NCBI GenBank assembly: GCA_018819225.1
Contig: JAHJQN010000003.1
Location: forward strand, 1-64,000
Direction: 5' to 3'
Source: Candidatus Micrarchaeota archaeon
GTDB taxonomy: Archaea > Micrarchaeota > Micrarchaeia > Norongarragalinales > SBBD01
Length of the DNA: 64,000 bases
The position numbers and the translations under genes are program-made. This document shows positions 1 through 44,700 of the stretch, piece by piece; the stretch's first letter is position 1, and each line of letters starts with the position of its first letter. The notes beneath the pieces were generated by a model. The model did not search any database and had not been told where the DNA came from. It saw only the letters and a list, made by a program, of their open reading frames with translations.

Positions 1-149
1 TCCCTTGAAAGTTCGGGTTCTTCCTTACAGGTGTCGGCAATATTGACGAGCTTCATCACGACCTCGTCGTAGCTCTCGTTCCGATATTCTTTATACCGGT
101 CCAAACCGGCTTTGGTTTTCTTGCGCAATCGAATCGTACTTGCCTCCAT
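1..149 (-). CDS. Partial small antitoxin-like (ribbon-helix-helix type) protein, runs off the window edge
   Basis: Manual translation MEASTIRLRKKTKAGLDRYKEYRNESYDEVVMKLV... matches the archaeal 'TI.l...TK..L...K....ESYDEVI..L' antitoxin pattern; TATA-like box upstream; alternative ATG at 155. Confidence 0.7.
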   Translation of the reverse strand, partial: MEASTIRLRKKTKAGLDRYKEYRNESYDEVVMKLVNIADTCKEEPELSR

Positions 150-168
150 ATACATCACGCATACAAAA

Positions 169-191
169 ATATACTAAAGTATATATAAAGG
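169..191 (-). promoter_or_regulatory. Near-palindrome ATATACTAAAGTATAT overlapping a TATA box; likely TA autoregulatory operator
   Basis: Inverted repeat at 169-184 adjacent to TTTATATA on the minus strand, about 30 bp upstream of the antitoxin start. Confidence 0.45.
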
Positions 192-220
192 TTCCGTTTC
201 GATAGGTCAACGAAACTCTG

Positions 221-274
221 CTTTCAGCCCAAGACTGCGCTTACTCCCCCCTGCACTCAGACTTGGGCTGGAAG
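221..274. repeat. Structured repeat family 1, copy 1 (core ACTCCCCCCTGCACTCAGA)
   Basis: 17-bp inverted arms 221-237 / 258-274 (15/17); 235-261 matches 1698-1724 at 26/27. Confidence 0.85.
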
Positions 275-281
275 TGCCCGC

Positions 282-551
282 TTACTTGAAAGAGGCGTAC
301 CACTTCTCATACTCCTTGTGCGTGGCAAAGCAGCGTATGATGTAAAGCGTGTCTTCTTTTACTTCGTATACCAGTCGGGATTGTCTCGTCACTTCTTCAA
401 CGAAAAAAGGAACGCCGAAACGCATGTGCCTTCGTGGAAGCTGAAGGCTGATTTTTTCCACGTGTTTCAGGAAGTATTTTCGAAGAGATGTTTCTAGCTC
501 CTTCAGATCCGTTTCAGCATGCTCCGTAAAAAGGACGCGCACGGGATTCAC
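282..551 (-). CDS. RelE/ParE-family toxin
   Basis: 89 aa, 'VLFTEHAETDLKEL...RLVYEV...LYIIRCF.TH.EY' RelE pattern; overlaps upstream antitoxin by 4 nt. Confidence 0.75.
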   Translation of the reverse strand: MNPVRVLFTEHAETDLKELETSLRKYFLKHVEKISLQLPRRHMRFGVPFFVEEVTRQSRLVYEVKEDTLYIIRCFATHKEYEKWYASFK

Positions 552-796
552 TTCGAATATTTTGCCTTGATTTTGTCGAAAGGTATGGTTTTCATCTGCC
601 CGCTTTCCACGAGCCTCATTTCATGATCTACCCCTTTGCGCACGAGCAGTACCTCTTCCTCGTCCACCTTCCGCTCATACGCCATCAACGCCTGGCGAAT
701 TAATTCGGTCTGGTTACCGGCATAACCCTTCTCAATAAGCCGTTTCATCAAGGCCTCATATGGCGGCCCTAAACTCACATTCATATGCTCACCCAA
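548..796 (-). CDS. ParD-like RHH antitoxin
   Basis: 'MNVSLGPPYE..MKRLIEKGYAGNQTELIRQAL' RHH motif; coupled to toxin; start may be the ATG at 784. Confidence 0.75.
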   Translation of the reverse strand: MGEHMNVSLGPPYEALMKRLIEKGYAGNQTELIRQALMAYERKVDEEEVLLVRKGVDHEMRLVESGQMKTIPFDKIKAKYSK

Positions 797-909
797 CGCA
801 CATTAATAATACGTTCTACTATATAAAGATTGCGCATTGGTTTTCGGAGAATAGTCTTCGCGAGGAATTCAGAACAAAAAAGGAATGCGATTAGACTACG
901 TCTTCGCGC

Positions 910-987
910 ACTCCCCCCTGCACTCAGATAGGGTCTAGGCGCAGGCCGGTACGTTTTCATGCCCAGATCCACGAAAAAACGTACCAT
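910..987. repeat. Structured repeat family 1, copy 2
   Basis: 78 bp, 77/78 identical to 1706-1783; contains hairpin GGTACGTTTT...AAAACGTACC at 948-985. Confidence 0.9.
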
Positions 988-1238
988 CCCTGCCAGTTAT
1001 AGGCTGCCTGATTTGGAATCATCGAACGGAATTTCGTCCAAGGCTAAAAAACCTTGGCGAGTTACGTTCTCATGACATTGAAGCCGGCTTCCCTGGTCCT
1101 GACGCGGCCTTTTCCAAACCAAAGAAGCATCCGGCGACGAACAATCGCATTAATAGCAAGTAAAACACGCTTCCTTGGAAACGTCCTTCCGCAACGGTTA
1201 ATAAGTTCTCAGGCGCAAAACGTTTTCGGTGGAATACC

Positions 1239-1439
1239 ATGTACGTTCCGGCATTGAAGAAGAACGCCGTCCATCTGATGCGACGAGAGGCGCTTCGCTT
1301 GCGCGAGGAATACTTGGAGCATGCGGAGGATATGAAACTTTACGCGAACCCGGAGTTCTGGGCGGCAGTTGAGGACGTGGAAAAAGGCAGGACTCGAAAG
1401 CTTTCCCTCAAGCAGCTCCGCAAGGAGTTGAAGCTCTGA
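1239..1439 (+). CDS. Antitoxin (RelB-like), partner of downstream RelE
   Basis: 66 aa with C-terminal 'EFWAAVEDVEKGRTRKLSLKQLRKELKL' typical of archaeal antitoxins; 1 nt before toxin. Confidence 0.7.
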   Translation: MYVPALKKNAVHLMRREALRLREEYLEHAEDMKLYANPEFWAAVEDVEKGRTRKLSLKQLRKELKL

Positions 1440-1440
1440 A

Positions 1441-1692
1441 ATGCCTATCTACTTTTCGGCGTTCAGCCACCGGTTCCTCGGCCAGTTAAAGAAACTGGAT
1501 CGGCGGCAAAAGGAATTGGTTTTCAAGCGGATCGAGAAAATCCTCCGAAATCCCGAGATGGGAAAGCCGCTGCATGCGCCGCTGGCTAACTACCTAAGCG
1601 AACGCTTTGAGAGCCACCGAATAATATTCAAAATACGGGGCAGCACAGTCGAATTCGCGTGGCTGGACAAACGCAAACGGGTTTACGAGTGA
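1441..1692 (+). CDS. RelE/ParE-family toxin
   Basis: 'F..QLKKLD...KRIEKIL.NPEMGKPL...L...S.R...HRIIF.I...V.F...KR..VY' canonical RelE. Confidence 0.85.
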   Translation: MPIYFSAFSHRFLGQLKKLDRRQKELVFKRIEKILRNPEMGKPLHAPLANYLSERFESHRIIFKIRGSTVEFAWLDKRKRVYE

Positions 1693-1693
1693 T

Positions 1694-1783
1694 CCGGCTG
1701 CGCTTACTCCCTCCTGCACTCAGATAGGGTCTAGGCGCAGGCCGGTACGTTTTCATGCCCAGATCCACGAAAAAACGTACCAT
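1694..1783. repeat. Structured repeat family 1, copy 3
   Basis: Starts 2 nt after the toxin stop; arms CCGGCTGCGCTTA / TAGGCGCAGGCCGG plus second hairpin 1744-1781. Confidence 0.9.
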
Positions 1784-1877
1784 TATCGGTTTTTATGGAC
1801 TGCCCGTTCGGTGTTCAACGGAATCGTTTTCGTATTATGCCAAGAATAACAAAACAGTACTTGCCAATGACGAGCCT

Positions 1878-1927
1878 GAAAAATTCGTGCGCATTAAGAT
1901 CGATCTGCAGGAGCGGATTAGGCGGCC
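1878..1927 (+). repeat. Repeat family 2, copy A (coding-like relic EKFVRIKIDLQERIRRP)
   Basis: 38/50 identical to 2833-2882 without gaps. Confidence 0.7.
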
Positions 1928-2139
1928 AAGTTCAGAAAAAATGGCTGATTTGAATATCATATCGATATAACCCAGTCTGTCGGCCTTTAAATACTGGAAA
2001 ATGAACGTCTACTCCAAACATTAAAAAACATCTATTTTCCTATTGTTTAGTATTGCATCCCCGTGTTTGCCCGCATCCTTCGGGGTTGGGCAACTACAGG
2101 CTGGCGTTTCTTTTCCGACTACGCTCAAGGTGGTCATGA

Positions 2140-2334
2140 ATGGATGGGAATTGTTCCGCATTTTCTGAAATCGACCAAGAGAAGTACATCGGTCAGTGGG
2201 TGGCCATCGTGGATAAGAAAATAGTGTCCAGCGGTAAGAGCTTTGCCGATGTCTACGCCAAGGCCAAGAAAAAATTCCCCTCCAAAATACCATTTTTAGC
2301 CCCAGTTACAACCAACAAAGTTTTCATTCTCTAG
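2140..2334 (+). CDS. DUF5678-like small protein
   Basis: 'KYIGQWVAIVDKKIVSSGKS...VY.KAKKKFP...PF' signature. Confidence 0.8.
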   Translation: MDGNCSAFSEIDQEKYIGQWVAIVDKKIVSSGKSFADVYAKAKKKFPSKIPFLAPVTTNKVFIL

Positions 2335-2354
2335 CCTTTCCCAGTGTTTCTTTT

Positions 2355-2807
2355 GTGACCCTGCACTTTGATTACAAGGTCAAGCCTCGCGCCGACGGCT
2401 CGTTTTCACGGAAAATGCCGCTTATTCCAGTCATGCTACGAGGCCCAGACGGAGAATTTGAGACCTTAGCGTTAGTGGATTCGGGCGCGGACTATTCCAC
2501 GATTTTCCTCCAACAGGCGCAAGTGCTCGGTTTGCTTCCTTCAAAGCCGTGGAAGACCGAGCCCGTATTCGGGTTGGGAGGAAAAGTCGAAGTCCTCCGT
2601 TCCGAGCTGAACTTGGCCTTTTCCGGGCGCGGAGAGCATAAGCGGTTTCGGATGCAAGTCCCCTGTTCCATCATCATTGAAGACAAGCCAGAATACAGCG
2701 ATTATCCCGTCATTCTCGGAAGGGAAGGCTTCTTCGATCGATTCAAGATAACCTTCTTCGAATACGCGCAACGGATAGAGTTGTCGGAAGCCCCACTTCC
2801 CCTCTAA
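2355..2807 (+). CDS. Retropepsin-like aspartyl protease
   Basis: 'ALVDSGADYS' catalytic motif and 'ILGREGFFDRFKITF' C-terminal motif. Confidence 0.85.
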   Translation: MTLHFDYKVKPRADGSFSRKMPLIPVMLRGPDGEFETLALVDSGADYSTIFLQQAQVLGLLPSKPWKTEPVFGLGGKVEVLRSELNLAFSGRGEHKRFRMQVPCSIIIEDKPEYSDYPVILGREGFFDRFKITFFEYAQRIELSEAPLPL

Positions 2808-2832
2808 CACACTCTGGGTAATAGATCAGTTC

Positions 2833-2890
2833 GGAAAATTCCTGCGCATCATGGTCGATCTACAGGCGCAGCTCAGGAAGCCGTTTGAAG
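2833..2890 (+). repeat. Repeat family 2, copy B (GKFLRIMVDLQAQLRKPFE)
   Basis: Similar to 1878-1927 (38/50) and to 4791-4829 (30/39). Confidence 0.7.
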
Positions 2891-3004
2891 CTCGAGTATC
2901 ATCGGTATTTATGAAAATAACGCAGGATAGGGGCTATAGGTGCAGTCTGCAGCTTTGAACTCTGAATAAAAAGTTATATATACGAAGAAATAGATACGTA
3001 GTTC

Positions 3005-3190
3005 ATGGGCATATTGGAATTCGCCTTATCGTTGATTGGAGTATCCATAGTGATTGCAATATTACTCTTTGTTACCAATGCAAAAGTAATGGAACAGATT
3101 TTTGGAAATTACTTTGTTGCAGGATTTGCATTAGCTTGTATAATCGGAATGATTTACAAAGGATTGCTAACCGGCCATGTTTCTCGCTGA
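3005..3190 (+). CDS. Small two-TM membrane protein
   Basis: 61 aa with two hydrophobic segments; AAAAG-TTATATAT BRE/TATA-like motif about 30 bp upstream. Confidence 0.55.
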   Translation: MGILEFALSLIGVSIVIAILLFVTNAKVMEQIFGNYFVAGFALACIIGMIYKGLLTGHVSR

Positions 3191-3278
3191 ATTTTCGAAT
3201 AATGGCGTTATAGAGAAACAGCAGTAGGAGGAAATTGGACGGGCAACCATATCATAAATTACCGCTTATCTGGTTCCT

Positions 3279-3770
3279 ATGGCTTCCAATTTATCAGAGA
3301 ATACCGCGATTCGGTTTCTAACCAACATACAAATCCCCGCCAAGGCATATTCGGAAGCGAAGTCTGAGCTTCAACTCAAATTCAAAAAAGAGCCGTCTCC
3401 GGGAGATGTTGCTTGGAGTGTTCTGAATGACTCTATTCTAGAGTGTTCTCATGAAAAAAACTATCAAAAGCTGTCATCTGTATACTATTCGATGGCACTT
3501 CTTCTGGATAAAGAAGGAAAAGACGCATTTACTATTCGGCAACAATCGGCAAAATGGGGGCTTCACCGATACTTAGCGGCAGGGCTCGTTCAAGACGTGC
3601 AGATTTTAAGCGCACGAGATAGCTGCCCCCAATGCAAAAAACTCGAAGGAAAAGTTTTCCCATTAGAAGAAGCTCTTCAAAAGCTTCCAGTTCCGTCGAG
3701 AGCCTGCAGCCGTCCTCTTCACCAGAAAACACGCGGCTTCTGCCGATGTACCTATGTGGCTGTTGTTTGA
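3279..3770 (+). CDS. Hypothetical protein with C-terminal Cys cluster (CPQC...C...CRC), resembling the MuF/minor-head C-terminal motif
   Basis: 'DSCPQCKKLEGKVF...LPVP...C...GFCRCTY'. Confidence 0.55.
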   Translation: MASNLSENTAIRFLTNIQIPAKAYSEAKSELQLKFKKEPSPGDVAWSVLNDSILECSHEKNYQKLSSVYYSMALLLDKEGKDAFTIRQQSAKWGLHRYLAAGLVQDVQILSARDSCPQCKKLEGKVFPLEEALQKLPVPSRACSRPLHQKTRGFCRCTYVAVV

Positions 3771-3811
3771 TTATTATGAAATCTGCATCCAGTTTGTGCT
3801 AACAGCTTTGC

Positions 3812-4174
3812 CTATAGACCAAACCAATGAAATTCCTTTGAAACTTGTAGGAGTAGAAACATCGCTTGTATTACCGTTAAAACGACGACTATTATCGTGA
3901 ATTTTGCCATTTGAACGGTTAAGGCTTCTGTTTTCCATGCGCTTGAAAGCATTGCACCGTTAGAACCAAGAATATAGCATTCTCTACCGTTCGAAGTTAT
4001 TTGTGTTAAAATTCCGCTTGCAATAAGCGTCTTAAGAATCTCGGGCCGTTTTAGAGTTTCGGGGAGTGCGTCTTCAGTAGTAATTACCCATGGAAAGTTG
4101 CGTCCCATCCTTTCAAAAAACTGCCTAGTCTCGTTAATTTGTTGCGCTATTTCCGCATCCGACATTGGTTCCAT
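3812..4174 (-). CDS. Hypothetical protein, possible wHTH-like N-terminus and C-terminal TM helix
   Basis: 120-aa ORF; hydrophobic C-terminus. Confidence 0.55.
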   Translation of the reverse strand: MEPMSDAEIAQQINETRQFFERMGRNFPWVITTEDALPETLKRPEILKTLIASGILTQITSNGRECYILGSNGAMLSSAWKTEALTVQMAKFTIIVVVLTVIQAMFLLLQVSKEFHWFGL

Positions 4175-4218
4175 ATACTCACTTCTTTTTCATTCCGCAA
4201 TTAGTGTTTACTCTACTT

Positions 4219-4503
4219 CTACTTTTTCTCGTTAAGATATTTTTCAATCGTTTCAAAATTCTCATAGGTTTGTACAAAAAGCGTTCGGATAAAAAGAAGA
4301 AATGCGATGAAAAGATAGCTACCAACAAAAAAACTAATTTTTGTAAGCAGATCGCCCCCAATAATAAAAAATGAAACAACGCCCAGAATAATTGCAAATA
4401 TCCCTCGATCCATCGAAAAAATTGCAGAGGTTACTTCCCACCATAATTTTTCCTTTGTAACCAAATGGATTTGTTTCTCAGTTTTGGTGTGGCTAGTCTT
4501 CAT
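4219..4503 (-). CDS. Hypothetical membrane protein
   Basis: 94 aa with two TM-like segments; overlaps upstream ORF. Confidence 0.5.
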   Translation of the reverse strand: MKTSHTKTEKQIHLVTKEKLWWEVTSAIFSMDRGIFAIILGVVSFFIIGGDLLTKISFFVGSYLFIAFLLFIRTLFVQTYENFETIEKYLNEKK

Positions 4504-4732
4504 AAACGCGCAACCCTAGAAGGAGAAAAATAACGCCAAATACAAACAAGAACATATTATTTTGTAAAATGATAGAAGTTGTTTGTGCAGTCAGATTTAC
4601 TATTAGAAAAGAAATTACGTCTGGCGATGGTTTTATGCCGCCAGTTGCGAGCATGACAAAATACGCGCCTAAAGTGAAAAGCAGACCCGCCGTAACTGTT
4701 CTGATCCAATGCTTTATGCTTTGCTTTGCCAT
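4493..4732 (-). CDS. Hypothetical membrane protein
   Basis: 79 aa with two TM-like segments; GGAGAG SD-like motif upstream. Confidence 0.55.
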   Translation of the reverse strand: MAKQSIKHWIRTVTAGLLFTLGAYFVMLATGGIKPSPDVISFLIVNLTAQTTSIILQNNMFLFVFGVIFLLLGLRVYED

Positions 4733-4790
4733 ATTCTCTCCTAAAATATATCTTTAACCTCTTCTTTAACCTGCCGACAATTAACTTCCC

Positions 4791-4829
4791 TGGTCGGTAT
4801 CTAGCCGCAGCTGCGAAAACCGTTTGAAG
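4791..4829 (+). repeat. Repeat family 2, copy C (degenerate, VGI*PQLRKPFE)
   Basis: 30/39 identical to 2852-2890; several differences are synonymous in the shared frame. Confidence 0.6.
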
Positions 4830-4866
4830 TTTGCGGTCTCGATTTAGGAATTGCTAAAATGATGTA

Positions 4867-5499
4867 TTAGGGTTGTGTCATTGATTTTTTCTTTTCATCT
4901 ACAAGGGACTTAGCGCCAAGAGCTTCGGCAAGCTTGCTTTTCATCATTTTTTCCGTAAACTCCTGGTAATCGACGAAGAACGCCACTCCATTGAAAACCA
5001 AAAGCGACTTGAATTCTGGCGTATAGGCTTCATGGATATTTCGTTTAACCAGTTCATCGTGGTTAATCCGTTCAAACATTTCATGCAGCGTATATTTACC
5101 TTCTTTAGCATGTTTTAGCATATCCACCAACGGGCCAAGAGTTGTGACTGATGTGCCCTTTACTACTTCCGGTGGAGGAAGAAACCGTTCCAAGAATTCC
5201 CGTCTCGGTATGAGAAACTCTTGGCCAGCATAAACATTTTCAGCTGTTAGATATGGGCGCAACACATCGACAAGGTAGCTTGCAACTATTGATTGGTCGG
5301 ATGTTGGAAGGATGTTCCGCCTTTTCCCAACACCACCCGGGAGGTTGCTTGTTTCATGCACACTCAATTTGCCATCTTTGGATATGAACGTAATGTGCTT
5401 GTTTGACCCTTCACTACCCATCAGGAAACCGTCCCGGGTACTTGCAAAAACCAAGCTAAAATCCGGGGTTCTAAGCTTTGAGCGCTTAACTTTGCCCAT
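4867..5499 (-). CDS. Hypothetical protein (about 210 aa)
   Basis: Long ORF; the likely start is MGKVKR at 5499, because the longer version overlaps the divergent wHTH gene. Confidence 0.6.
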   Translation of the reverse strand: MGKVKRSKLRTPDFSLVFASTRDGFLMGSEGSNKHITFISKDGKLSVHETSNLPGGVGKRRNILPTSDQSIVASYLVDVLRPYLTAENVYAGQEFLIPRREFLERFLPPPEVVKGTSVTTLGPLVDMLKHAKEGKYTLHEMFERINHDELVKRNIHEAYTPEFKSLLVFNGVAFFVDYQEFTEKMMKSKLAEALGAKSLVDEKKKSMTQP

Positions 5500-5550
5500 G
5501 ATATATCTTAATGAATTAGTAGTTATTATCTGTGCTGTTGGTTGGTTCAT

Positions 5551-5809
5551 ATGTCCAAGCTGTCCCGGCCACCGAGACGCGCGTCGCCGAGCAAATCCTT
5601 GCCTACCTCTACCAAGAGTACGACGAGGCTTGCTCAACGCACATGATGCCGACGAGGTTGTGCGTAGCGACCACTTCGTGCTCCGGGTCCTCGAGAAGCT
5701 CAAGGGAAAGCGGCTGGTGAGCTCGCAGAAGGGACAGAAGAACGCCTTGGAATGGGTGCTTACTGCGCCGGCGCATGCGGCGTATAAAGATAAGGTCAGT
5801 TCTCGATGA
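5551..5809 (+). pseudogene. Frameshifted winged-helix protein gene (DPANN-type)
   Basis: Adding one base near 5566 and one near 5647 gives MSKLSPATETRVAEQILAYLYQEYDEACSTHM(I)ADEVVRSDHFVLRVLEKLKGKRLV...WVLT..AY, a coherent wHTH. Confidence 0.6.
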
Positions 5810-6237
5810 GAAAAAACATTCCGAAATCATTGCAATTGAAAATATGGGCGCGAGATGGTTGGAGCTGCCGGTACTGCGGAGAGGCTGTATTCTTCGCCCC
5901 TACGCTGAAATTGCTTAATGAGCTCAGCCCGGGCCACGGATACTATCATCCTAACGGCAAAACTGGTTCTATGCTTCCTCTCTTCCAAATGCGATGGGCG
6001 TCTGTCGATCATGTCACGCCATTTTCAAAGGGTGGCGAGGATAACGAGCAAAATTACGTTACCGCCTGTTGGGGATGCAATCTAAAATACCGGGAACGGA
6101 CTCATGAACAAGGAAAACCTAGCCCCATAGAAATCAATATGAATGCGAAGAAACTCGGCTGGGATGGCCTCTCCTCAATCTACTTGAAATTATCTAAGAA
6201 ACGGGATGCTTGGACCGCTTTGTTCAATAATGACTGA
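5806..6237 (+). CDS. HNH endonuclease
   Basis: 'RDGWSCRYCG...DHVTPFSKGG....NYVTACWGCN'. Confidence 0.9.
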   Translation: MRKNIPKSLQLKIWARDGWSCRYCGEAVFFAPTLKLLNELSPGHGYYHPNGKTGSMLPLFQMRWASVDHVTPFSKGGEDNEQNYVTACWGCNLKYRERTHEQGKPSPIEINMNAKKLGWDGLSSIYLKLSKKRDAWTALFNND

Positions 6238-6376
6238 ATGTCATGGAATGGAAGCTCAAGGCCCCGTGAATGCAGCGTATAATGCAAAGGCGGTGCAGTC
6301 AAATCACCTTTCAAACGGAAGTGGAGTTCCACCCCATTTTATAAACATAAATCTGGTCTTTGAATAGGGTCTTTAA

Positions 6377-9238
6377 TTGCCACAAACTGATTACGAAAAC
6401 GCCAAGAAGGAAGTCCAAATTCTTGTCGAGAAATTCAATCAAGTGAATTCAAGCGGCAAGCTCAAGGGCTACAATGAAGAGAACACGAAAAAAGACTTCA
6501 TCACACCCCTCTTCCGCGCGCTTGGCTGGGACGTTGAAAACCGCCATTCGCCCGACGAGGTTACTAACGAGGACCGCGTCTCCAAAGGCCGGGTTGACTA
6601 TTCCTTCCGCATGAACGGAATCCCAAAGTTCTTCCTTGAAGCAAAAGCCATCAACAAGGGAATAGACGAAGCCAAGGATGCCGCGCAAGCCATCAGCTAT
6701 GCCTTTCATAAGAACACGACCTGGGCGGTTTTGACAAACTTCGAGTCGCTGGCAATCTATAACGCAGAAGTAAAGGAAAAAACTATATCCGATGCACGGT
6801 TCATCATCCTCAACTACAACCAGTATTTGGAAGAATTCCCCAAACTGTGGCTGCTTTCCAAACAAGGCTTCTTGGAAGAATTGCTTGACAAAAGCGCGGA
6901 GTCATGGGGCAAGAAGCTCAAGAAAACCAAGGTCGGCGACCAGCTTCTTTCCGAACTCATGTATTACCGTGAACTACTCTCCAAGAACATAGTCAAGAAT
7001 AACCCCAAGAAGAATCTTTCCCAGGAGGAAGTTGACGAGGCTGTTCAACGCATCATCGATCGCCTCATATTCATCCGCACTACCGAAGACCGCAACATCG
7101 AGCCCCCTACGCTTGCCCCCCTTGTCCGGGAATACGCTGACCGCAAGCGTGGCCAACTCACCCACGCGCTCAATGAAGTCTATCTCCGTTTCGACAAGAC
7201 ATACAATAGCAAGCTCTTTACATTCAACCCTGCCGACTTGACCCAGCGGCATTTATGTGAAACCCTCGAAATTGACAACGAGACATTGATTTCAGTTCTC
7301 GAAGGCCTCTACCAAAGCCTGGACGGGTTAATCAACTTTGATTTTTCAGCCATCGACGCCGATGTGCTCGGCAACATCTACGAGCAATACCTTAGTCACA
7401 TCCTACGGAAAACTGACAAACGAGCTAAGGTCGAAAGCAAGGAAGCACACAGGAAAGAACAAGGCATCTACTACACCCCAACCTACATCGTCGATTACAT
7501 CGTCCGCAACACACTGGGCGAGCTGCTAAAGAGCAAGAAGCCGGCTGAAGTTGATGAAATCAAAGTCCTGGACATGGCCTGCGGCTCCGGCTCCTTCCTC
7601 CTCAAGGCATTTGACGTGCTCGACGACTACTATCGAACCCACGATAAGAATTACGCGCAATCGACCTTGGACATGGAATCTGACGTCGCTAAAATCACGC
7701 GCAAGACTAAAATCCTACGGAACAACATCCACGGCGTCGACCTTGACCCCAAGGCTGTTGAAATTGCTCAGCTAAACCTGTTGCTGAAAGCTGCCGAAAC
7801 CAGACACCTTCTGCCCGACCTGAGGGATAATGTCAAATGTGGCAATTCATTGGTTGACCAGAGCTTTGCGGAAGACACACGTGCATTTGATTGGAAAAAT
7901 GAATTTCAGGACATTGTTCAAAACGGAGGATTTGATGTCATAATCGGAAATCCTCCATATGTTCGTCAAGAGGAGTTTTTACCGATAAAGCCTTTTCTTC
8001 AACAAAATTACGAGGTTTTCGCTGGTACGGCCGACCTATTTGTCTATTTCTTCGAAAGAGAATTGAAGTTGTTAAAGAATGGCGGTTATTTTGGCATGAT
8101 TGTGTCAAACAAATGGCTCAAGGCAGGATATGGTTTGAATCTTCGCAAGTTCTTAAGCAAGTTCTACATCGAGCAATTCATTGACTTCGGAGACTTGAAG
8201 GTTTTTCAGGACGCGACCACCTATCCATGTATTATCATTGTTCGCAAACTCACTAAACCTAATTCGAAAATCAGGATTTGTCAACCAAAAACATTGACTT
8301 TCGATAGCCTAGAGCGTTATATCCAAAAAAACAGTTTTACTGTTGACCAACGCGTACTAGATGTAACTTCTTGGAATTTCCAAAACAAAGCCAGTTCAAA
8401 CTTTACTGAAAAAATAAAGAGGGCAAGCACTCCGTTAAAGGATTATGTTGGGGAAAACATTTTTCGAGGGGTACTAACGGGTCTGAATGCAGCCTTTGTT
8501 ATAGACGAACAAACGAGGAACCGGCTTATTCGAGAAGACTCTAACAGCGAGAAAATTCTTCCCCCCTTTTTAACTGGAAATGAAGTTCGAAGATATTCAA
8601 TTGCTTCTAAAGGAAAATATTTAATTTTCACAAGACGGGGTATCGATATTGATGAATACCCCGCAATTAAACGGTATTTAGAAAAATTCAAAGTTGAACT
8701 TACTCCAAAAAAGAATACTACTCAAACGGTGGGTAGAAAACCCGGAGATTACAAATGGTATGAAATTCAAGATACAATTGCGTATTATAAAGAATTTGAA
8801 AAACCAAAACTGATATACGGTAAAATTACCACGCATCCCCGTTTCAGTATTGATAGAACTGGCTATATCATTAATGACTCCAATTTCTTTTTTCCGATAA
8901 TAGATTTCAAATTACTAGCTATCCTTAACTCTAAACTCGGATGGTTTCTAATTTCAAACACTTGCACAGAAATCCAAGGTGGCTACCAGCTTATTTGGAA
9001 GTATTTCGGTAATGTGCCTATTGCAAAGGCCAAATCTCCGGAGTTGGAAAGGCTTGCTGAGAAAATGCTTTCATTGAATGAGCGATTGCTTGACTTTGAA
9101 GGCAAGTCAACTGACGAGTCAGCTCGTTTGGAAAAGGAGATTGCGGATACTGATAGAAAGATTGATTCCCTTGTCTATGATTTGTATGGTTTGACTGAGG
9201 AAGAGCGAAAAATTGTTGAAGAGTCGGTAGGGAAATAA
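6377..9238 (+). CDS. Type IIG (Eco57I-like) fused restriction endonuclease / N6-adenine methyltransferase
   Basis: N-terminal 'VD...FLEAK' nuclease; GIYYTP; motif I 'LDMACGSGSF'; motif IV 'GNPPY'; TaqI-C-like TRD; C-terminal 'IDSLVYDLYGLTEEE'. Confidence 0.92.
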   Translation: MPQTDYENAKKEVQILVEKFNQVNSSGKLKGYNEENTKKDFITPLFRALGWDVENRHSPDEVTNEDRVSKGRVDYSFRMNGIPKFFLEAKAINKGIDEAKDAAQAISYAFHKNTTWAVLTNFESLAIYNAEVKEKTISDARFIILNYNQYLEEFPKLWLLSKQGFLEELLDKSAESWGKKLKKTKVGDQLLSELMYYRELLSKNIVKNNPKKNLSQEEVDEAVQRIIDRLIFIRTTEDRNIEPPTLAPLVREYADRKRGQLTHALNEVYLRFDKTYNSKLFTFNPADLTQRHLCETLEIDNETLISVLEGLYQSLDGLINFDFSAIDADVLGNIYEQYLSHILRKTDKRAKVESKEAHRKEQGIYYTPTYIVDYIVRNTLGELLKSKKPAEVDEIKVLDMACGSGSFLLKAFDVLDDYYRTHDKNYAQSTLDMESDVAKITRKTKILRNNIHGVDLDPKAVEIAQLNLLLKAAETRHLLPDLRDNVKCGNSLVDQSFAEDTRAFDWKNEFQDIVQNGGFDVIIGNPPYVRQEEFLPIKPFLQQNYEVFAGTADLFVYFFERELKLLKNGGYFGMIVSNKWLKAGYGLNLRKFLSKFYIEQFIDFGDLKVFQDATTYPCIIIVRKLTKPNSKIRICQPKTLTFDSLERYIQKNSFTVDQRVLDVTSWNFQNKASSNFTEKIKRASTPLKDYVGENIFRGVLTGLNAAFVIDEQTRNRLIREDSNSEKILPPFLTGNEVRRYSIASKGKYLIFTRRGIDIDEYPAIKRYLEKFKVELTPKKNTTQTVGRKPGDYKWYEIQDTIAYYKEFEKPKLIYGKITTHPRFSIDRTGYIINDSNFFFPIIDFKLLAILNSKLGWFLISNTCTEIQGGYQLIWKYFGNVPIAKAKSPELERLAEKMLSLNERLLDFEGKSTDESARLEKEIADTDRKIDSLVYDLYGLTEEERKIVEESVGK

Positions 9239-18758: not shown

Positions 18759-18769
18759 CCGGCGGTAAC

Positions 18770-18927
18770 CCTCCTCCCCTCCCTGCATTCCGACCTTTTT
18801 CAAAAAAGGTCGATCAAAAAGTCGCTCGTCAAACACTCTTTGGCCGAGCTTTCTTCCCAAGAAAAGTCGTTGTGAACCCCTTCCCCCCTGCATTCAGACC
18901 GGGAGCTTGCGTGAATGTGGGAGAAGA
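18770..18927. repeat. Two degenerate copies of the family-1 core (CCCTGCATTC(C/A)GAC), each with a hairpin
   Basis: CCCTCCCTGCATTCCGAC then CGACCTTTTTCAAAAAAGGTCG (~18777-18812); CTTCCCCCCTGCATTCAGAC...TGAATGTGGGAGAAG (~18880-18927). Confidence 0.55.
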
Positions 18928-40094: not shown

Positions 40095-41267
40095 TCAACT
40101 CAAAGCCGCCAACGTCTTTAAAGCTTCCCCGAAACGAGTCACTTGCTCTTCCGTATTGTAGACGTGCAACGAAGCCCTCACCGTGCCCGGCACGCCCAGT
40201 TTTTTAGTGAGGGGAATCGCGCAATGATGTCCGGAACGACATGCAAACCCCAATTGATCGAGCATGACCGCCGCTTGATGGTGCGGAACATTTTTTACGG
40301 AAAACGGGAATATTGCTCCTGCTTTTTCCTCCGCTTGGTTCGAACCGAACAACGTGACATGCGGCGACTCTTGAAAAACGCGCAACATCGCGGCAATCAA
40401 TTTCTGATCGTGAGACTGAATAACAGAATAACCGATTTGGTTAATGACATCTAACGCGGCCCCGAGCCCCAGCCATTCAGCTATGGGCGGCGTTCCTGCT
40501 TCAAAGCGCTCCCGGTGCTTCAATAAGTTGTAATCGGATAAGGATACGTCGCGAACGGTTCCACCGCCGACAAACCAAGGCGAGAGATCGACATTCTTTC
40601 GATGAAATAGAACGCCGATTCCCGTGGGGCCAAAGCTCTTGTGACCGGAAAACGCGAGAAAATCAACAGGCCATTGCTTCAAGCTAACGGGATGATGGCC
40701 CACGTATTGAGCGGCATCCACGAAAACGAGCGCGCCGGCTTTCTTGGCCGTGCTCGCCAAATCCGTTATTGGAATCGTCCCGCCCAACACGTTACTGCAA
40801 GCAGTAAATGACACTAAACGCGTCTTCTTGGAGATCACGGACACAAGCTTTTCAGGAGACAAGCGGCCTTCCGCATCCGACTCCAATATGCGAACAAGGA
40901 CTCCCTGCTTTTTCAAGCGCAGCCAAGGCAACAGATTCGAATGATGCTCAATATCCGTGACAATGACTTCGTCTCCTTTACTCCATTCCAACCCCAAAGC
41001 GACGGCATTAACGGCTTCCGTCGTATTGCGTACTGCAGTAAACTCCTGCGCGTCCGCTTGAAAGAAGTGCGCTAATTTTCCATAAACGGACTCGTATTCA
41101 TCCGATGCTTTTAGAGTTAGTCGATGCGCTCCGCGGTGAATGTTCGCCCGGTAATCCCGATAGTATTCCTGCATTTTCTCCAAAGCGGGCGTACACGTCA
41201 GCGAAGTAGCTGCGGAATCGAAGTACGCCATTCCTGCTGGTTGTTGGAATAGCTCGGATACGTCCAT
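40095..41267 (-). CDS. sufS: Cysteine desulfurase, SufS subfamily
   Basis: 'YFDSAATS', 'ANIHRG', 'EHHSN', 'FSGHK', 'FEAGTP', 'RSGHHCA'. Confidence 0.92.
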   Translation of the reverse strand: MDVSELFQQPAGMAYFDSAATSLTCTPALEKMQEYYRDYRANIHRGAHRLTLKASDEYESVYGKLAHFFQADAQEFTAVRNTTEAVNAVALGLEWSKGDEVIVTDIEHHSNLLPWLRLKKQGVLVRILESDAEGRLSPEKLVSVISKKTRLVSFTACSNVLGGTIPITDLASTAKKAGALVFVDAAQYVGHHPVSLKQWPVDFLAFSGHKSFGPTGIGVLFHRKNVDLSPWFVGGGTVRDVSLSDYNLLKHRERFEAGTPPIAEWLGLGAALDVINQIGYSVIQSHDQKLIAAMLRVFQESPHVTLFGSNQAEEKAGAIFPFSVKNVPHHQAAVMLDQLGFACRSGHHCAIPLTKKLGVPGTVRASLHVYNTEEQVTRFGEALKTLAALS

Positions 41268-41332
41268 GGCTAAATCATTGGGAAAAGGGATTTAAAAGCG
41301 CTCGAAATCATGAGCCCTTGAAGCACGGGGGC

Positions 41333-41722
41333 TCATTCCTCGCTTTCGTAGCAAAGCCCGTCTTCACCGCTACAAAACTCGTTTCCCACGCAACCGCAAT
41401 CCGCTGGACACAAATCGCACCGTTCGTCCGCCTGGCAAATGGCGTCCCCGCATTCCGGTAATGCGAATTCGTCTTCATCCCCAGCCGGAGCAGGCGCCAC
41501 AGCTTCTCCTTCATCGAATAACTCGCCTCCGGAAGGAGCAGGAGTCGCGGTTAGAGATGGAGGTGAAGCCGTTGGAACGGGTTCGTTATCGGGAGTGGGA
41601 AAGGAAGGAGAAGGAGTTGTATCCGCTGTTTTGAATCCCAAATACCAAATGCCTAAAATAATCACTAACGCAATGGCTCCCCACACGAGCAGGTTCACTC
41701 CTTTTCTTTTCAATAATTTCAT
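41333..41722 (-). CDS. Small membrane-anchored protein: N-terminal TM, Pro/Thr linker, 8-Cys C-terminal module
   Basis: 'CGDAICQADERCDLCPADCGCVGNEFCSGEDGLC'; paralogue of 45057-45464. Confidence 0.8.
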   Translation of the reverse strand: MKLLKRKGVNLLVWGAIALVIILGIWYLGFKTADTTPSPSFPTPDNEPVPTASPPSLTATPAPSGGELFDEGEAVAPAPAGDEDEFALPECGDAICQADERCDLCPADCGCVGNEFCSGEDGLCYESEE

Positions 41723-41738
41723 GCAATCAACTTATGAG

Positions 41739-44700
41739 TTAGTCTTGGACACCCGCTACTGCCGGCGTATACGTAGAAACGAGAACAATAACCTCGAACT
41801 CGCCTTTAGAATTCTCTTCAATACCGCAGAAACGTGCTTCAACCCCTTCCATTTTGCCTTCGCCGGCACATAGCACGGACGGAGGAGCCATCGCACAATC
41901 CACAACACTTGAATAAACCTGCAATTGAGTTGAATCATCCAACACGTCCTCGCAGATCTGCGTAGAGATCTCGAAAGGAGTATCGCCTTCCTTTTCATAA
42001 ATGCGTAGAGTCAACTTTTCAAGAAGCGGTTCCGCGTAATCACTTGACGTAAACGGATGGGATAAATGATTGTATGCTGAGATGGGTGTTTTAAATATTG
42101 TGGATAGCTTTCCCGTGTCTCCCAGCTCAATGACTCGTGTCCAAGGTTCCGCTTTTTTAGCTGCAGAAAGCCTGTATGAAACCCAGTATCGGTCACCCCA
42201 AGCGGTTTCAGTCACAATAGTATTGTCTACGGGAATCACGGGGATCGGGGACGTGACGATTGCTGGAGACGGGGAAGGCGTCGGAGTCGCCTCGACAACG
42301 GGTTCGTCAAAAAATAAGGGAATGGATGGATCGCCCGTTAAATGAAACGCGTAGGGGAAAACGTATACATTGGGATTCAGATTTTTAGACGGAATATCGG
42401 GCGAGATCAATTCTCTTTTAAGCACCAACAATGCTTCCCCTAACGTTCCCGTTTTTTGTTTTTCATGAAGACCGGCAAAAATCATTCCGATTAACCCGTA
42501 ATTTTCTTCGATGACTTGAGCATTGCGTTCACTGATGAGCGCCGCTGCGCCCCGGCCTAATGTTGAAGAGATGCCAAGAAGCGAATCATCCCGGCGAGCG
42601 ATGAAAACGATGGGCCGATTTTCAAGATCAAACTTCGGAAAATCTTTGTCGGAAAACGAGCTCAGCATGAAATACGGATTCTTTGAGGTATCTTTCGCCA
42701 ATACAGCGACATCCGTCAAATGACTCGGAAAAAGGGCAATGAAGCTGCTGCCCTCCAACCGATTCACATAGGATTTTGAATCCGTACACGATCCGGTATA
42801 TGAATGAATGCAATAGGGAGGAGAAAACACGCATAATTCGGGATATGCGGAACACCCGTAATGGTCAAAATCAAAATGGTCAATATGATTGTTAAAACCC
42901 TCCACAAACGCATCCAGCCTCACATCGATATATCGCGGATCCACGATCTCCAAGTGTTCCGCCGGGCCAACCACGAGAGGCTTGCGGTTTTCCTTCAAAG
43001 GAGTCAAGGCGTCTGCGGTTTGCTGCAACATGATGGCGAGAGTCGCGGGATCCGAGGCGTCTCCGTTGCGGGGATCAAAACCCGTGATTCGTCCCACCGG
43101 AATTTTTGGAAATACGTCGTTTGGAATCATTCCATACGCATCGTCGGTTTCAAACGATAGGGAACCTCCGCTTGAAGTCTGGTATGTTTTGATGCCAAAG
43201 GGAAGAACTCGCTCATCTCCCAATAATACGACTTGAATCGGATTTACTTTTCTTCGAACGCGATTCACCACGAGCCGGTTTCGCGTGGTTTCATCGTTAA
43301 CACGCTCGAACATCGTTTTGGCGTTAGGATCAAAGGATTGCAGTGACCCCACATCGTCAATAACTGCCAATCGCGTTCTCAACGGATGCGATTCGACGTA
43401 ATTTCTTAAAGCGGCATTCAACGTGGAGTCTTCTAAATCTAATTTCTTACTTGTTAATACTAGATTATCCGCGGAACAAGAAAAGCGGGCCCGGATAGTA
43501 TTCGGTTTCTCCAATATGCCGGGCACGGAAACTTCAACGGCATCGAATACTCCGCACATTTGACACAGGGGGTCATATTCAAATGATAGCGCGAACACGT
43601 TTTCCTTATCCGTGGCTTTAAATGATTCCCCGGCCTTCAAGCATGAGGATGCGGACTCTACGACCTTGAAAAGAATATCCGGATTCTTGAGGATCCAACC
43701 CTTTTCCGATACGGGATCCAAGGATACGAGTTTGAGTTCGGCTTGCGTATTCTTGGAATTAAAAACGAACTCCGAGTTATCAAAGAAAACGCGCTGGGAA
43801 AGTCGCGGTTGCGAATGAGCATCCAAATAGGCCGTATCCAACGGAGATCGCTCCGCACCATTTTCTTCTTCGTAGGAATAGGTCCTGAGACCCGCTCGCA
43901 TATGGTACTCCCGATCCTTGAATTGGAAACCGCAGAACGACACTTCAAATATTTCATCGCGCCCCGGACCGGCACAGCGAATGTAGGAAGGTGAAGCAGA
44001 GCAATCCGCTTTTTCAGATCCTAATAGCCCGTCAGGCTCTTCAATGACTCCGGTGCATAAGACGTTTTTCCCTTCATCATAAAGAGTTAGCCCAAGTTTT
44101 GTGACGCTCACATCCATCGCAGGGGCATATTTAAGGTCGGATGGAAATATCGCGCGATCTATTGTTTGGGAATACCGCGACGTCACTTTATCAATAAATT
44201 GGGGCTTTTCGGGATTCAATGGATCTAATACTCGAACGGTATATGATAATTGGTATCGGTCACCCCACGTTTTTTCCGGGATTTCAAAGACGGGTTCTTG
44301 CTCTAATTGACGTGTTTCGCCTTCTCCGGAAACGAGTTCGATGAAAAAGGTCTTGTCGGAATACCCCCAGTACCGATCGGCATCCCCGCCCCGATCCCTA
44401 ATCGTGGAATAATCAGTATAAGTATGGGCCACGAACACGCGGTATTTTCCGGGCTGCCACGGATTCGTGGTGCGCGCACCCACCCCGGTTGCACCCAAAA
44501 CAGGGCACTCGAACTTGATCTTGAATTTCGAGTTCGCATGCTGATCATCTTGGAATTCATAGCTGCACAACCGACTGCCGTAACGTTCATCAATGGGCAC
44601 TAACGTAACCGTGAGCTTCTCTCCTTTACGCGCGTTCTGCATCTTGACCATAAAGTAAATGCTATCTTCCCCGATCGTAAACTGAGCGGCTTTCTCGTCG

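Follow-up and report, generated by a model that had tools for sequence, protein, structure and literature searches.

Tyrosine integrases that target tRNA genes classically use the 3' end of the gene as their att core. In Islander-type genomic islands and with the archaeal "classical" tyrosine integrases, an intact tRNA gene and a displaced fragment of it bracket the insert, the integrase gene lies beside att, integration occurs in tandem at one locus, and related integrases go to different tRNAs (PMC4383910, PMC8371274). The tycheposons of Prochlorococcus are tyrosine-recombinase elements at a few tRNA genes, where newcomers push older units inward and "plug-in" cassettes form the cargo; they carry integration and replication modules with up to 10 kb of cargo, and scattered partial tRNAs and degenerate remnants accompany them, as is usual in tRNA-linked islands (10.1101/2020.12.28.424599). 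In Streptococcus and other bacteria, cis-mobilizable elements (CIMEs) and integrative mobilizable elements have functional-looking att flanks and no recombinase of their own; they are stacked next to a relative that bears an integrase, which presumably serves them in trans (PMC5704250). In integrons, archaeal ones included, the integrase gene is divergent from the leading site of a row of small cassettes, which commonly carry toxin-antitoxin (TA) cargo, and the system as a whole captures genes at a single locus (10.1101/2022.02.06.479319).

The locus described here, at the start of a window of 64,000 nucleotides, resembles all of these systems in the traits listed, the modules and cargo size of tycheposons aside, and departs from each. 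Unlike in tRNA-targeting islands, the integrase is Xer-like with a C-terminal Cys4 zinc ribbon, and many units are integrase-less, with one or two genes in 0.7-1.2 kb. Unlike in tycheposons, the recurrent unit is minimal, with neither integrase nor replication gene, and the host is archaeal. Compared with CIMEs, again in an archaeal rather than a bacterial host, the units are much smaller and stand in arrays of at least three, and mobilization in trans is suggested by sequence comparison. Integrons differ in having an IntI-type integrase and attC and attI sites, all absent here; the site core of our locus is a tRNA-derived att of the double-strand type, and its cassettes occur in both orientations, each with its own promoter.

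The assignment of the window to a DPANN archaeon in the initial annotation was correct, the closest records being Candidatus Micrarchaeota. DPANN archaea have tiny genomes with few recognized mobile elements, so their gain of accessory and defense genes is poorly understood. The locus provides a concrete route for such gain, with a lineage-specific integrase family at tRNA-Leu, sister clades at other tRNAs, and minimal integrase-less cassettes that pile up behind the tRNA. We consider it probable that the array grew by integrase-mediated tandem accretion of units, non-autonomous mini-cassettes among them, at a tRNA-Leu att site. Tandem site-specific accretion at such a site is of a known kind; the arrays of integrase-less mini-cassettes are an integron-like variant of it. 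The relevant features of the window are as follows.

1-158, minus strand: 5' part of a DUF7557/RHH antitoxin gene (Pfam DUF7557, E 2.4e-07)
194-206, no strand: empty target site of a 1,092-bp HNH-gene element with terminal inverted repeats, from contig comparison
208-285, plus strand: att junction 1, with left arm 208-242, core 243-261, and family 1 right arm 262-285
282-796, minus strand: cargo of cassette A, a RelE/ParE-like toxin (282-551) and an antitoxin (548-796)
875-987, plus strand: att junction 2, with left arm 875-909, core 910-928, and family 2 right arm 929-987
1239-1692, plus strand: cargo of cassette B, an antitoxin (1239-1439) and a ParE toxin (1441-1692)
1695-1846, plus strand: att junction 3, with left arm cut to 1695-1705, core 1706-1724, and family 2 right arm
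2140-2807, plus strand: next unit rightward, a DUF5678 protein and an aspartyl-protease-like protein
18760-18900, plus strand: displaced tRNA-Leu 3' end region, with core 18781-18788, a native trailer of ~100 nt, and a pseudo 3' half

Three same-orientation core copies had been reported and are present at 243-261, 910-928, and 1706-1724. The motif as first typed has no match even with two mismatches allowed, because one C was missing from it; the corrected core is 19 nt, ACTCCC(C/T)CCTGCACTCAGA, with 0.03 matches expected by chance, and none of 100 shuffles reached four. Copy 1 lies between the RHH antitoxin gene (3-158, minus) and the RelE/ParE-like pair (282-796, minus), copy 2 separates that pair from the ParE pair (1239-1692, plus), and copy 3 lies 2 nt past the stop codon at 1692, all as first described, and the proposal that these are recombination sites delimiting gene cassettes is supported. 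The mosaic of their flanks also held up: the left flanks of copies 1 and 3 match at 26 of 27 positions (235-261 versus 1698-1724), and copies 2 and 3 match at 77 of 78 from the core rightward. The block shared by copies 2 and 3 (899-987 versus 1695-1783) is 94% identical over 89 nt, with the remaining mismatches all left of the core; to its right they agree at 59 of 59 positions, after which identity falls sharply to ~70%. In an att site of this kind, the core stands between a conserved left arm of ~33 nt, which is not tRNA-derived and is found at every joint, and a right arm that measures 25-150 nt. With the covariance model R1, junction 1 scores 52 bits; junction 3, whose core carries one C-to-T change, scores 27 bits with the covariance model.

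The core is a displaced tRNA-Leu 3' end, made of the acceptor 3' strand with the discriminator (CCCCTGCA) and ~5 nt of trailer. The genome has five tRNA-Leu genes, each ending in (C/T)CCCTGCA; CCCCTGCA forms the last 8 nt of three of them, and in the TAG and TAA genes the first of these bases differs (TCCCTGCA). The core has 12 nt identical to tRNA-Leu(TAA) plus its trailer, CTCAG, and at junction 1 the tRNA-identical part is 248-260. The likeness extends into the right arms. Junction 1 has an arm resembling the further trailer of the contig 2 gene tRNA-Leu(TAA). The arm of junction 2, which contains a 10-bp hairpin (948-985), and the trailer of the contig 7 gene tRNA-Leu(CAA) are 83% identical. 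The arm of junction 3 equals that of junction 2 up to 1783, matches the CAA trailer in the same way, and aligns with contig 7 tRNA-Leu trailers to ~1846. ARAGORN and Rfam found nothing over the window, and the link to tRNA was traced solely through weak genome-wide matches. The initial annotation had taken the repeats for an undescribed recombination-site family. They are no new kind of site, since their invariant part is the tRNA-Leu 3' end, and ordinary integrative elements of 3.3-6.5 kb in relatives are bounded by the same site together with an integrase. Past the unit at 2140-2807, there is no further att copy of the site family before 18.8 kb. There, the flank of the displaced 3' end aligns by eye with the trailers of two tRNA-Leu genes, TAG on contig 7 and CAG on contig 1, and the pseudo 3' half has a core at 18886-18893; this region is likely the right boundary of the whole accreted island.

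The TA modules of the window are integrase-less units of 0.67-0.8 kb, and those between junctions 1 and 2 and between junctions 2 and 3 have att sites on both sides, TA genes only, and no recombinase gene. Cargo orientation is mixed: cassette A is encoded on the minus strand, cassette B on the plus. TATA-like boxes precede the minus-strand operons at 182-196 and 820-834, the latter belonging to cassette A itself. The cassette A toxin has a weak ParE/YoeB Pfam match (E 0.035-0.046), and DNA homologues of this cassette in relatives are 65-74% identical. The cassette B toxin matches Pfam ParE_toxin (E 1.9e-06), and its cassette is bracketed by a 78-nt direct repeat with one mismatch. The antitoxin at 1-158 belongs to a unit left of copy 1, cassette X, whose ParE partner is outside the window.

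The recombinase had been predicted to lie outside the window, and we located it on an ENA metagenome contig. This contig, k141_237666, matches window 194-7692 at 99.99% identity and reaches further left, where it encodes an intact tyrosine integrase of 374 aa (PF00589, E 7.7e-20) ~1.7 kb left of base 1 in its own version of the window; this gene belongs to the same population as the window. In the coordinates of this locus, L033, window 1-206 corresponds to 3455-3660 and the full pair of cassette X to 3113-3609 on the minus strand; the integrase gene (1738-2862, minus) starts 100-117 nt from a fourth site copy (core 2964-2971, plus), from which it is divergent and which is followed by the cassettes. 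A tyrosine recombinase with the R-K-H-R-H/W-Y catalytic set thus lies beside the att site, and R169, K195, H267, R270, W292, and Y302, with the four Cys, are invariant in eight homologues. The only match in a scan of JGI metagenomes was a 1.4-kb contig with the same arrangement. The left 6.2 kb of the ENA contig contain no tRNA-Leu, and no available contig has the intact tRNA-Leu gene that should close the island on its left. The present assembly (G000, 90% complete) lacks the integrase itself; its sole tyrosine recombinase is a truncated paralogue, 35% identical, beside tRNA-Ser, and the genome has no serine recombinase and no Y1 HUH transposase. Three site patterns gave no match to IMG/VR viral contigs, and therefore no free viral or plasmid attP was found there.

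The closest solved relative of the integrase is archaeal XerA (PDB 4A8E, 5HXY; E 6.7e-18), with the same catalytic residues. Unlike XerA, it scores 110 bits against a XerA family cut-off of 220, has the zinc ribbon in addition, is tRNA linked, and is multi-copy in some genomes; by context it is no chromosome-dimer resolvase. An SSV-type (suicidal) integrase is rejected, as the att site is outside an unsplit reading frame, and pdif/Xer-dependent modules, in which sites alternate in inverted orientation, are rejected because all copies of an array point the same way. We found no published description of the zinc-ribbon family in the literature searched, and it is so far known almost only from Micrarchaeota metagenome-assembled genomes. 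Across 80 loci on genome contigs, homologues of at least 53% identity are typically placed 105-270 nt downstream of tRNA-Leu genes, with all five anticodons represented; a few lie instead ~118-128 nt from a displaced tRNA fragment, and more distant homologues adjoin other tRNAs.

Comparison with relatives reveals complete elements between an intact tRNA-Leu and a displaced fragment, of 3.3 kb in G022, 4.1 kb in G013, 5.7 kb in G040, and 6.5 kb in G057, with identity blocks of just 8-13 nt centered on the core. An intact tRNA and a fragment in direct orientation bracket the insert in these four genomes, in G055 and G038, and in an array on contig 2 of the present genome. The mini-cassettes in the window and the integrase-bearing elements have left arms that align with each other. 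By spacing, the sites form two classes, one of ~0.67-1.25 kb that lacks an integrase and one of 3.3-6.5 kb that includes it. Arrays with short spacing (0.69-1.2 kb) were found in no fewer than six other genomes of the order (G011, G055, G038, G025, G022, and G001), and in G055 and G038 they directly follow a tRNA-Leu gene. The contig 2 array stands behind tRNA-Leu(TAA) and consists of a TA pair, a Fic gene, and another TA pair; by exact-protein lookup its Fic protein returned the same arrangement and its toxin returned nothing. Homologous mini-cassettes bounded by sites are found at different loci in different genomes, as with the contig 2 TA cassette and a cassette between aroA and csp in G001 (74% over 701 nt), a locus with no counterpart in G000, and with the Fic cassettes of G000 and G011 (72% over 829 nt). 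Cargo beyond TA pairs includes Fic, a methyltransferase, and a secreted protein. The locus also varies among relatives, with one breakpoint at the 3' end of the same tRNA: the interval from tRNA-Leu(TAA) to the aIF2-beta gene ranges from 0.9 to 5.8 kb in ten relatives, with no fragment in G005 and G006 and one different cassette of 1.24 kb in G008. In the contigs compared, we saw neither an excision product nor a circular junction, nor a strain differing by exactly one of the window's cassettes.

These observations suggest a mechanism in which Xer-like zinc-ribbon integrases of Micrarchaeota would insert elements into the 3' end of tRNA-Leu genes, strand exchange probably taking place inside the 8-13-nt core. 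Repeated integrations at one core would push older units rightward, so that each joint would be a hybrid of one unit's left arm, the core, and the next unit's right arm. Such joints would yield the mosaic of flanks, and the new mechanism of which that mosaic had been thought a sign is not needed. The mini-cassettes, each a promoter and a TA pair, would be non-autonomous relatives of the 3-6.5-kb integrase-bearing elements, whose integrase most likely inserts and excises them in trans, as the shared arms and the same minimal units at different loci suggest. Were this so, the system would be a functional analogue of the integron with an independent origin in ordinary tRNA att sites. A crossover restricted to the core is at odds with two observations, namely, the identity of copies 2 and 3 to its right with the sharp drop that follows, and the different right-of-core arms of the homologous TA cassettes of G000 and G001. 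Tentatively, one may go further and picture integron-like capture on tRNA att sites across Micrarchaeota, in which a Xer-like zinc-ribbon integrase, either resident or brought in by a transient 3-6-kb element, would insert, excise, and reshuffle integrase-less cassettes of one or two genes (TA, Fic, methyltransferases, and others) behind tRNA-Leu genes and sister integrases would do so at other tRNAs; the dyad-symmetric arms may be partly recognized by structure, and a second exchange point where the right arm ends could account for the arm swaps. For annotation, tRNA-Leu 3'-end fragments in these genomes can be read as cassette boundaries.

A different history, which we think unlikely and yet the strongest competitor, is that the units are decayed integrase-bearing elements whose sites are scars and whose movement has ceased, TA pairs outlasting deletions of the integrase and other genes because their loss is costly. 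In the elements of relatives, the arm in front of the integrase gene is homologous to the family 2 right arms, and 310-415 nt of non-coding DNA separate the latter from the cargo. G011 has the most site copies (11) and no close integrase homologue, so arrays can persist as fossils; the G001 cassette toxin is frameshifted; and remnants and partial tRNAs are, as cited above, usual in tRNA-linked islands. Decay fits poorly with unit sizes that cluster at 0.67-1.25 kb rather than forming a continuum, with the retention of both arms by nearly every unit, with the same minimal unit at different loci in different families, and with cargo wider than TA pairs. Moreover, tblastn with eight integrase homologues (E<5) found no integrase remnant in or beside any G000 cassette; for cassette B this, together with its near-perfect 78-nt flanking repeat, suggests that it was inserted recently and already small. 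If no site-specific recombinase was involved, segmental duplication or homologous recombination between the trailers of tRNA-Leu paralogues might account for the 89-nt block of copies 2 and 3 with its identical right 59 nt, given that trailers are conserved among paralogues and that right-of-core arms sometimes part from their cargo. We regard it as improbable, considering the integrase gene beside the array, its homologues beside tRNA-Leu across the phylum, the conserved non-tRNA left arm at every joint, and the identity blocks of complete elements, which at 8-13 nt are too short for homologous recombination.

Hairpins bear on the first reading of the locus, a new attC-like family of sites recognized by structure as a folded single strand and independent of tRNA. 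A core-spanning hairpin had been claimed for each copy; it is found at copy 1 (z -2.7) and at copy 3 (z -2.2), there with the unpaired base described, and not at copy 2 (z -0.9), where the best fold leaves the core unspanned. The integrase-proximal copy also beats its shuffles (z -3.75), with arm sequences that differ between copies, and the divergent integrase and TA-rich cargo give an integron-like layout. The two contig 2 copies folded, C2c and C2d, have no spanning hairpin, and a short 5-bp hairpin in the left arm shows weak covariation that 29 of 500 shuffles equal. The hairpin is a reflection of dyad symmetry in the site arms and is absent at some copies. As first noted, attC boxes are lacking: window 1-3000, read on both strands, has no inverted RYYYAAC...GTTRRRY pair at a spacing of 40-130 nt. 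With TIGR02249 the integrase scores 46.7 bits and with NF011946 31.5, against cut-offs of 265 and 435, and the cassettes have their own promoters and both orientations. Above all, what stays invariant between copies is the tRNA-Leu 3' end, and arrays and elements have an intact tRNA-Leu gene at one end, so that this reading is largely refuted and very improbable. An ordinary dispersed repeat (REP/MITE), a terminator, or a small RNA gene is barely credible even with intergenic copies of which some form hairpins and one directly follows a stop codon, as there is no Rfam match and the copies lack the T-run typical of archaeal terminators. It is the distribution of copies that refutes it: the genome-wide scatter that such a repeat would show is not seen, as the seven covariance-model matches in the 1.37-Mb genome all fall in three tRNA-Leu-linked regions, and the ~ten copies in total, including more diverged ones on contig 2 (three) and contig 7 (one or two), all lie within tRNA-Leu-linked islands.

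Two further observations concern the surroundings of the array. In G045, the homologue of the cassette A TA pair lies between two tRNA-Arg genes, without att fragments, so such TA pairs are not always in cassettes. The target site of the HNH element at 194-206, empty in the present genome, is filled in two metagenome contigs; in L033, within 3648-4765, a 13-bp duplication flanks its 14-bp inverted ends.

Three same-strand copies of a 19-nt core lie near the left end of the window, at 243-261, 910-928 and 1706-1724, all on the plus strand, as the initial annotation had described; its motif as typed, from which one C was missing, gave 0 matches. Chance expectation for core matches is 0.03, and the motif search of the window found a further copy, with 3 mismatches, at 18880. 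The cargo separating the copies consists of small toxin-antitoxin (TA) pairs, recognized by profile matches:

3-158, minus strand, DUF7557
282-796, minus strand, weak RelE/ParE-like pair (cassette A)
1239-1692, plus strand, ParE pair (cassette B)

The mosaic pattern reported among the copies is real: copy 3 matches copy 1 at 26/27 positions over 235-261 and, from the core on, matches copy 2 with one mismatch. Copies 2 and 3 are 94% identical over 89 nt (899-987 versus 1695-1783), with all mismatches except one falling left of the core. Their right arms (929-987 and 1725-1783) are identical at 59/59 positions before an abrupt fall to ~70%, a step that crossover confined to the core does not explain; the identity stops exactly past a 10-bp hairpin (948-985, z -3.1). 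The hairpin said to span the core at each copy was borne out against shuffled sequence at copy 1 (z -2.7) and copy 3 (z -2.2), and not at copy 2 (z -0.9).

When the core was searched under relaxed settings through the complete genome (1.37 Mb in 8 contigs), the weak matches obtained fell at the 3' ends of tRNA genes. ARAGORN, supplemented by matching of 5' acceptor ends, located all five tRNA-Leu genes, and every one terminates in (C/T)CCCTGCA. At tRNA-Leu(TAA) on contig 2 the same CTCAG comes next, followed by a trailer resembling the right flank of copy 1, and tRNA-Leu(CAA) on contig 7 has a trailer that shares 83% identity with the sequence flanking copies 2 and 3 on the right. Because these gene ends and trailers match the core and its flanks, the core is the displaced 3' end of a tRNA-Leu gene, the trace usually left when an element integrates site-specifically into a tRNA gene (PMC4383910; PMC8371274). 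The undescribed recombination-site family proposed earlier gives way to a member of the tRNA-targeting integrative-element kind. A displaced 3' end of tRNA-Leu, a native trailer of ~100 nt and a pseudo 3' half occupy 18760-18900, where the entire 19-kb accessory region probably ends on the right. The same layout, with the pseudo 3' half likewise ~100 nt downstream, occurs behind tRNA-Leu(CAG) (contig 1, c145600) and tRNA-Leu(TAG) (contig 7, c14810).

Other features of these tRNA genes were also observed. ARAGORN overlooked tRNA-Leu(GAG) (contig 3, ~46,480-46,566, minus strand), which has an apparent ~40-nt insertion within the T-loop, a non-canonical intron position; introns interrupt many of the genome's other tRNAs. 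On contig 7 (235,051; stretch L002), the intact, intron-containing tRNA-Leu(CAA) gene is preceded, 76 nt upstream, by a 5' fragment of the same tRNA; downstream of the gene lies a family 2 right arm, the type found at copies 2 and 3, and there is a very weak integrase-like match at 236,643-236,795 (E 0.2-1.4).

The recombinase had been predicted to lie outside the window, and a candidate is found there. Exact-protein lookups with the window's toxins led to ENA contig k141_237666 (26.4 kb), which is 99.99% identical to window 194-7692 and extends further left through a ParE/DUF7557 pair, a fourth site copy (left arm, core and family 2 right arm) and, about 100-117 nt beyond that copy, a divergent 374-aa tyrosine integrase. 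The enzyme has every residue of the catalytic set and bears a Cys4 zinc ribbon at its C terminus; its closest solved relative is archaeal XerA, and it falls below curated cut-offs for XerA, XerC/D and integron integrases. The contig's leftmost 6.2 kb encode CARF-wHTH, TIR (ThsB-like), methyltransferase and other genes, and do not contain the intact tRNA-Leu that would be expected to close the island on the left. This genome's own assembly contains just one tyrosine recombinase, truncated and beside a tRNA-Ser, with no serine recombinase, HUH enzyme or clear XerA. The tyrosine recombinase (306 aa; contig 2, 97,235-97,954; L005 1417-2337; beside tRNA-Ser(CGA)) shares 35% identity with the array's integrase; its N-terminal domain is missing and a Cys-rich tail is retained, and it may represent a sister-clade integrase in decay.

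Window 194-206 is also the empty site of an element of 1,092 bp that ends in 14-bp inverted repeats and has a 13-bp target duplication; its occupied site lies on the ENA contig (stretch L033, 3648-4765). The element's products are an HNH endonuclease (178 aa) and a protein of 117 aa. Both the ENA contig and JGI contig Ga0180009_10111507 carry the element, and the contig of this genome does not; an end related to it occurs on contig 1 of the assembly (~184,917-184,953).

Integrase homologues occur in 30/61 related genomes and in 142 genome_contigs stretches, nearly all from Candidatus Micrarchaeota MAGs; we found no published description of this Micrarchaeota integrase family or these arrays in the literature. 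Among the 80 best loci, homologues of at least 53% identity are typically found 105-270 nt downstream of tRNA-Leu genes, with all five anticodons represented, and the neighbors of more distant ones are tRNA-Thr, Ser, Glu, Gly, Arg or Asn. At four loci the neighbor is instead a displaced fragment, ~118-128 nt from the integrase and on the other strand, the layout seen here. Complete elements, from tRNA-Leu to fragment, measure 3.3 kb in G022, 4.1 kb in G013, 5.7 kb in G040 and 6.5 kb in G057 (all related genomes). The two ends of each have only 8-13 nt in common, centred on CCCCTGCA, so that the crossover would fall within the core, and their ~33-nt left arms align with those of the window's integrase-less mini-cassettes. 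A homologue adjoining tRNA-Leu(TAA) in G024 (contig 1, ~568,236 onward; L069/L037) lies in an open frame of ~1,050 aa, suggesting that a large C-terminal extension is fused to it.

A covariance model of the site, built from 15 fragments, has matches in 28/68 genomes of the order and only seven in this genome, confined to three tRNA-Leu-linked regions. Downstream of tRNA-Leu(TAA) on contig 2, three more fragments, oriented as the tRNA, bound a TA pair, a Fic gene and another TA pair, followed by housekeeping genes. Across ten genomes of the same family, synteny of L40e-tRNA-Leu(TAA) and aIF2-beta is kept and the interval between tRNA and aIF2-beta varies between about 0.9 and 5.8 kb; fragments are lacking from it in G005 and G006, and G008 has a single different 1.24-kb cassette closed by a fragment. 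Arrays spaced 0.69-1.2 kb occur in G011, G055, G038, G025, G022 and G001, directly behind a tRNA-Leu gene in G055 and G038 and as a 3.3-kb integrase element followed by a 0.95-kb cassette in G022. Mini-cassette cargo comprises RelE/ParE-like pairs, Fic, methyltransferase, HEPN-like proteins and a secreted protein.

Two cassettes recur, whole and site-bounded, at other loci of other genomes: the contig 2 TA cassette in G001, between aroA and csp (74% over 701 nt), and the Fic cassette in G011 (72% over 829 nt, beginning at the core). The homologous TA bodies have right-of-core arms of different families in the two genomes. The G001 cassette (L022, contig 50, ~41,000-41,860) has two flanking site copies, a frameshifted toxin gene and no tRNA-Leu nearby. 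For the TA pair of cassette A, the nearest homologue at the DNA level (74%; G045 contig 1, ~8,200-9,100; L007) sits between tRNA-Arg(CCG) and tRNA-Arg(TCG), where displaced tRNA fragments are absent.

How the array arose can be framed as trans mobilization or random decay of integrase-bearing elements. That no integrase remnant is detectable in this genome's cassettes, that units fall into two size classes and that a 78-nt near-perfect repeat brackets cassette B favor mini-cassettes being non-autonomous units mobilized in trans. Fossil arrays clearly exist, since G011 has 11 sites and no close integrase. Every joint is a hybrid of the left-hand unit's left arm, the core and the right-hand unit's right arm; copy 3 resembles copy 1 on the left because both units have one left-arm subtype, and copy 2 on the right because neighboring units both have the family 2 right arm. 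Left and right arms roughly mirror each other as inverted repeats, most clearly at the integrase-proximal copy (z -3.75), and this dyad symmetry, which accounts for the hairpin potential of the sites, fits inverted binding sites around an overlap region. Covariation support for a short hairpin within the left arm is weak.

Among known systems, an integron is contradicted by the lack of IntI and of attC boxes, the latter already remarked upon and upheld by a box search on both strands of window 1-3000, and by cassettes with their own promoters in both orientations. Pdif-like modules are ruled out by the single orientation of all sites, and SSV-type integration by an integrase ORF that is intact and beside the site. 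The closest analogies to the locus include tandem accretion and cis-mobilizable elements (PMC5704250), as well as tycheposon islands.
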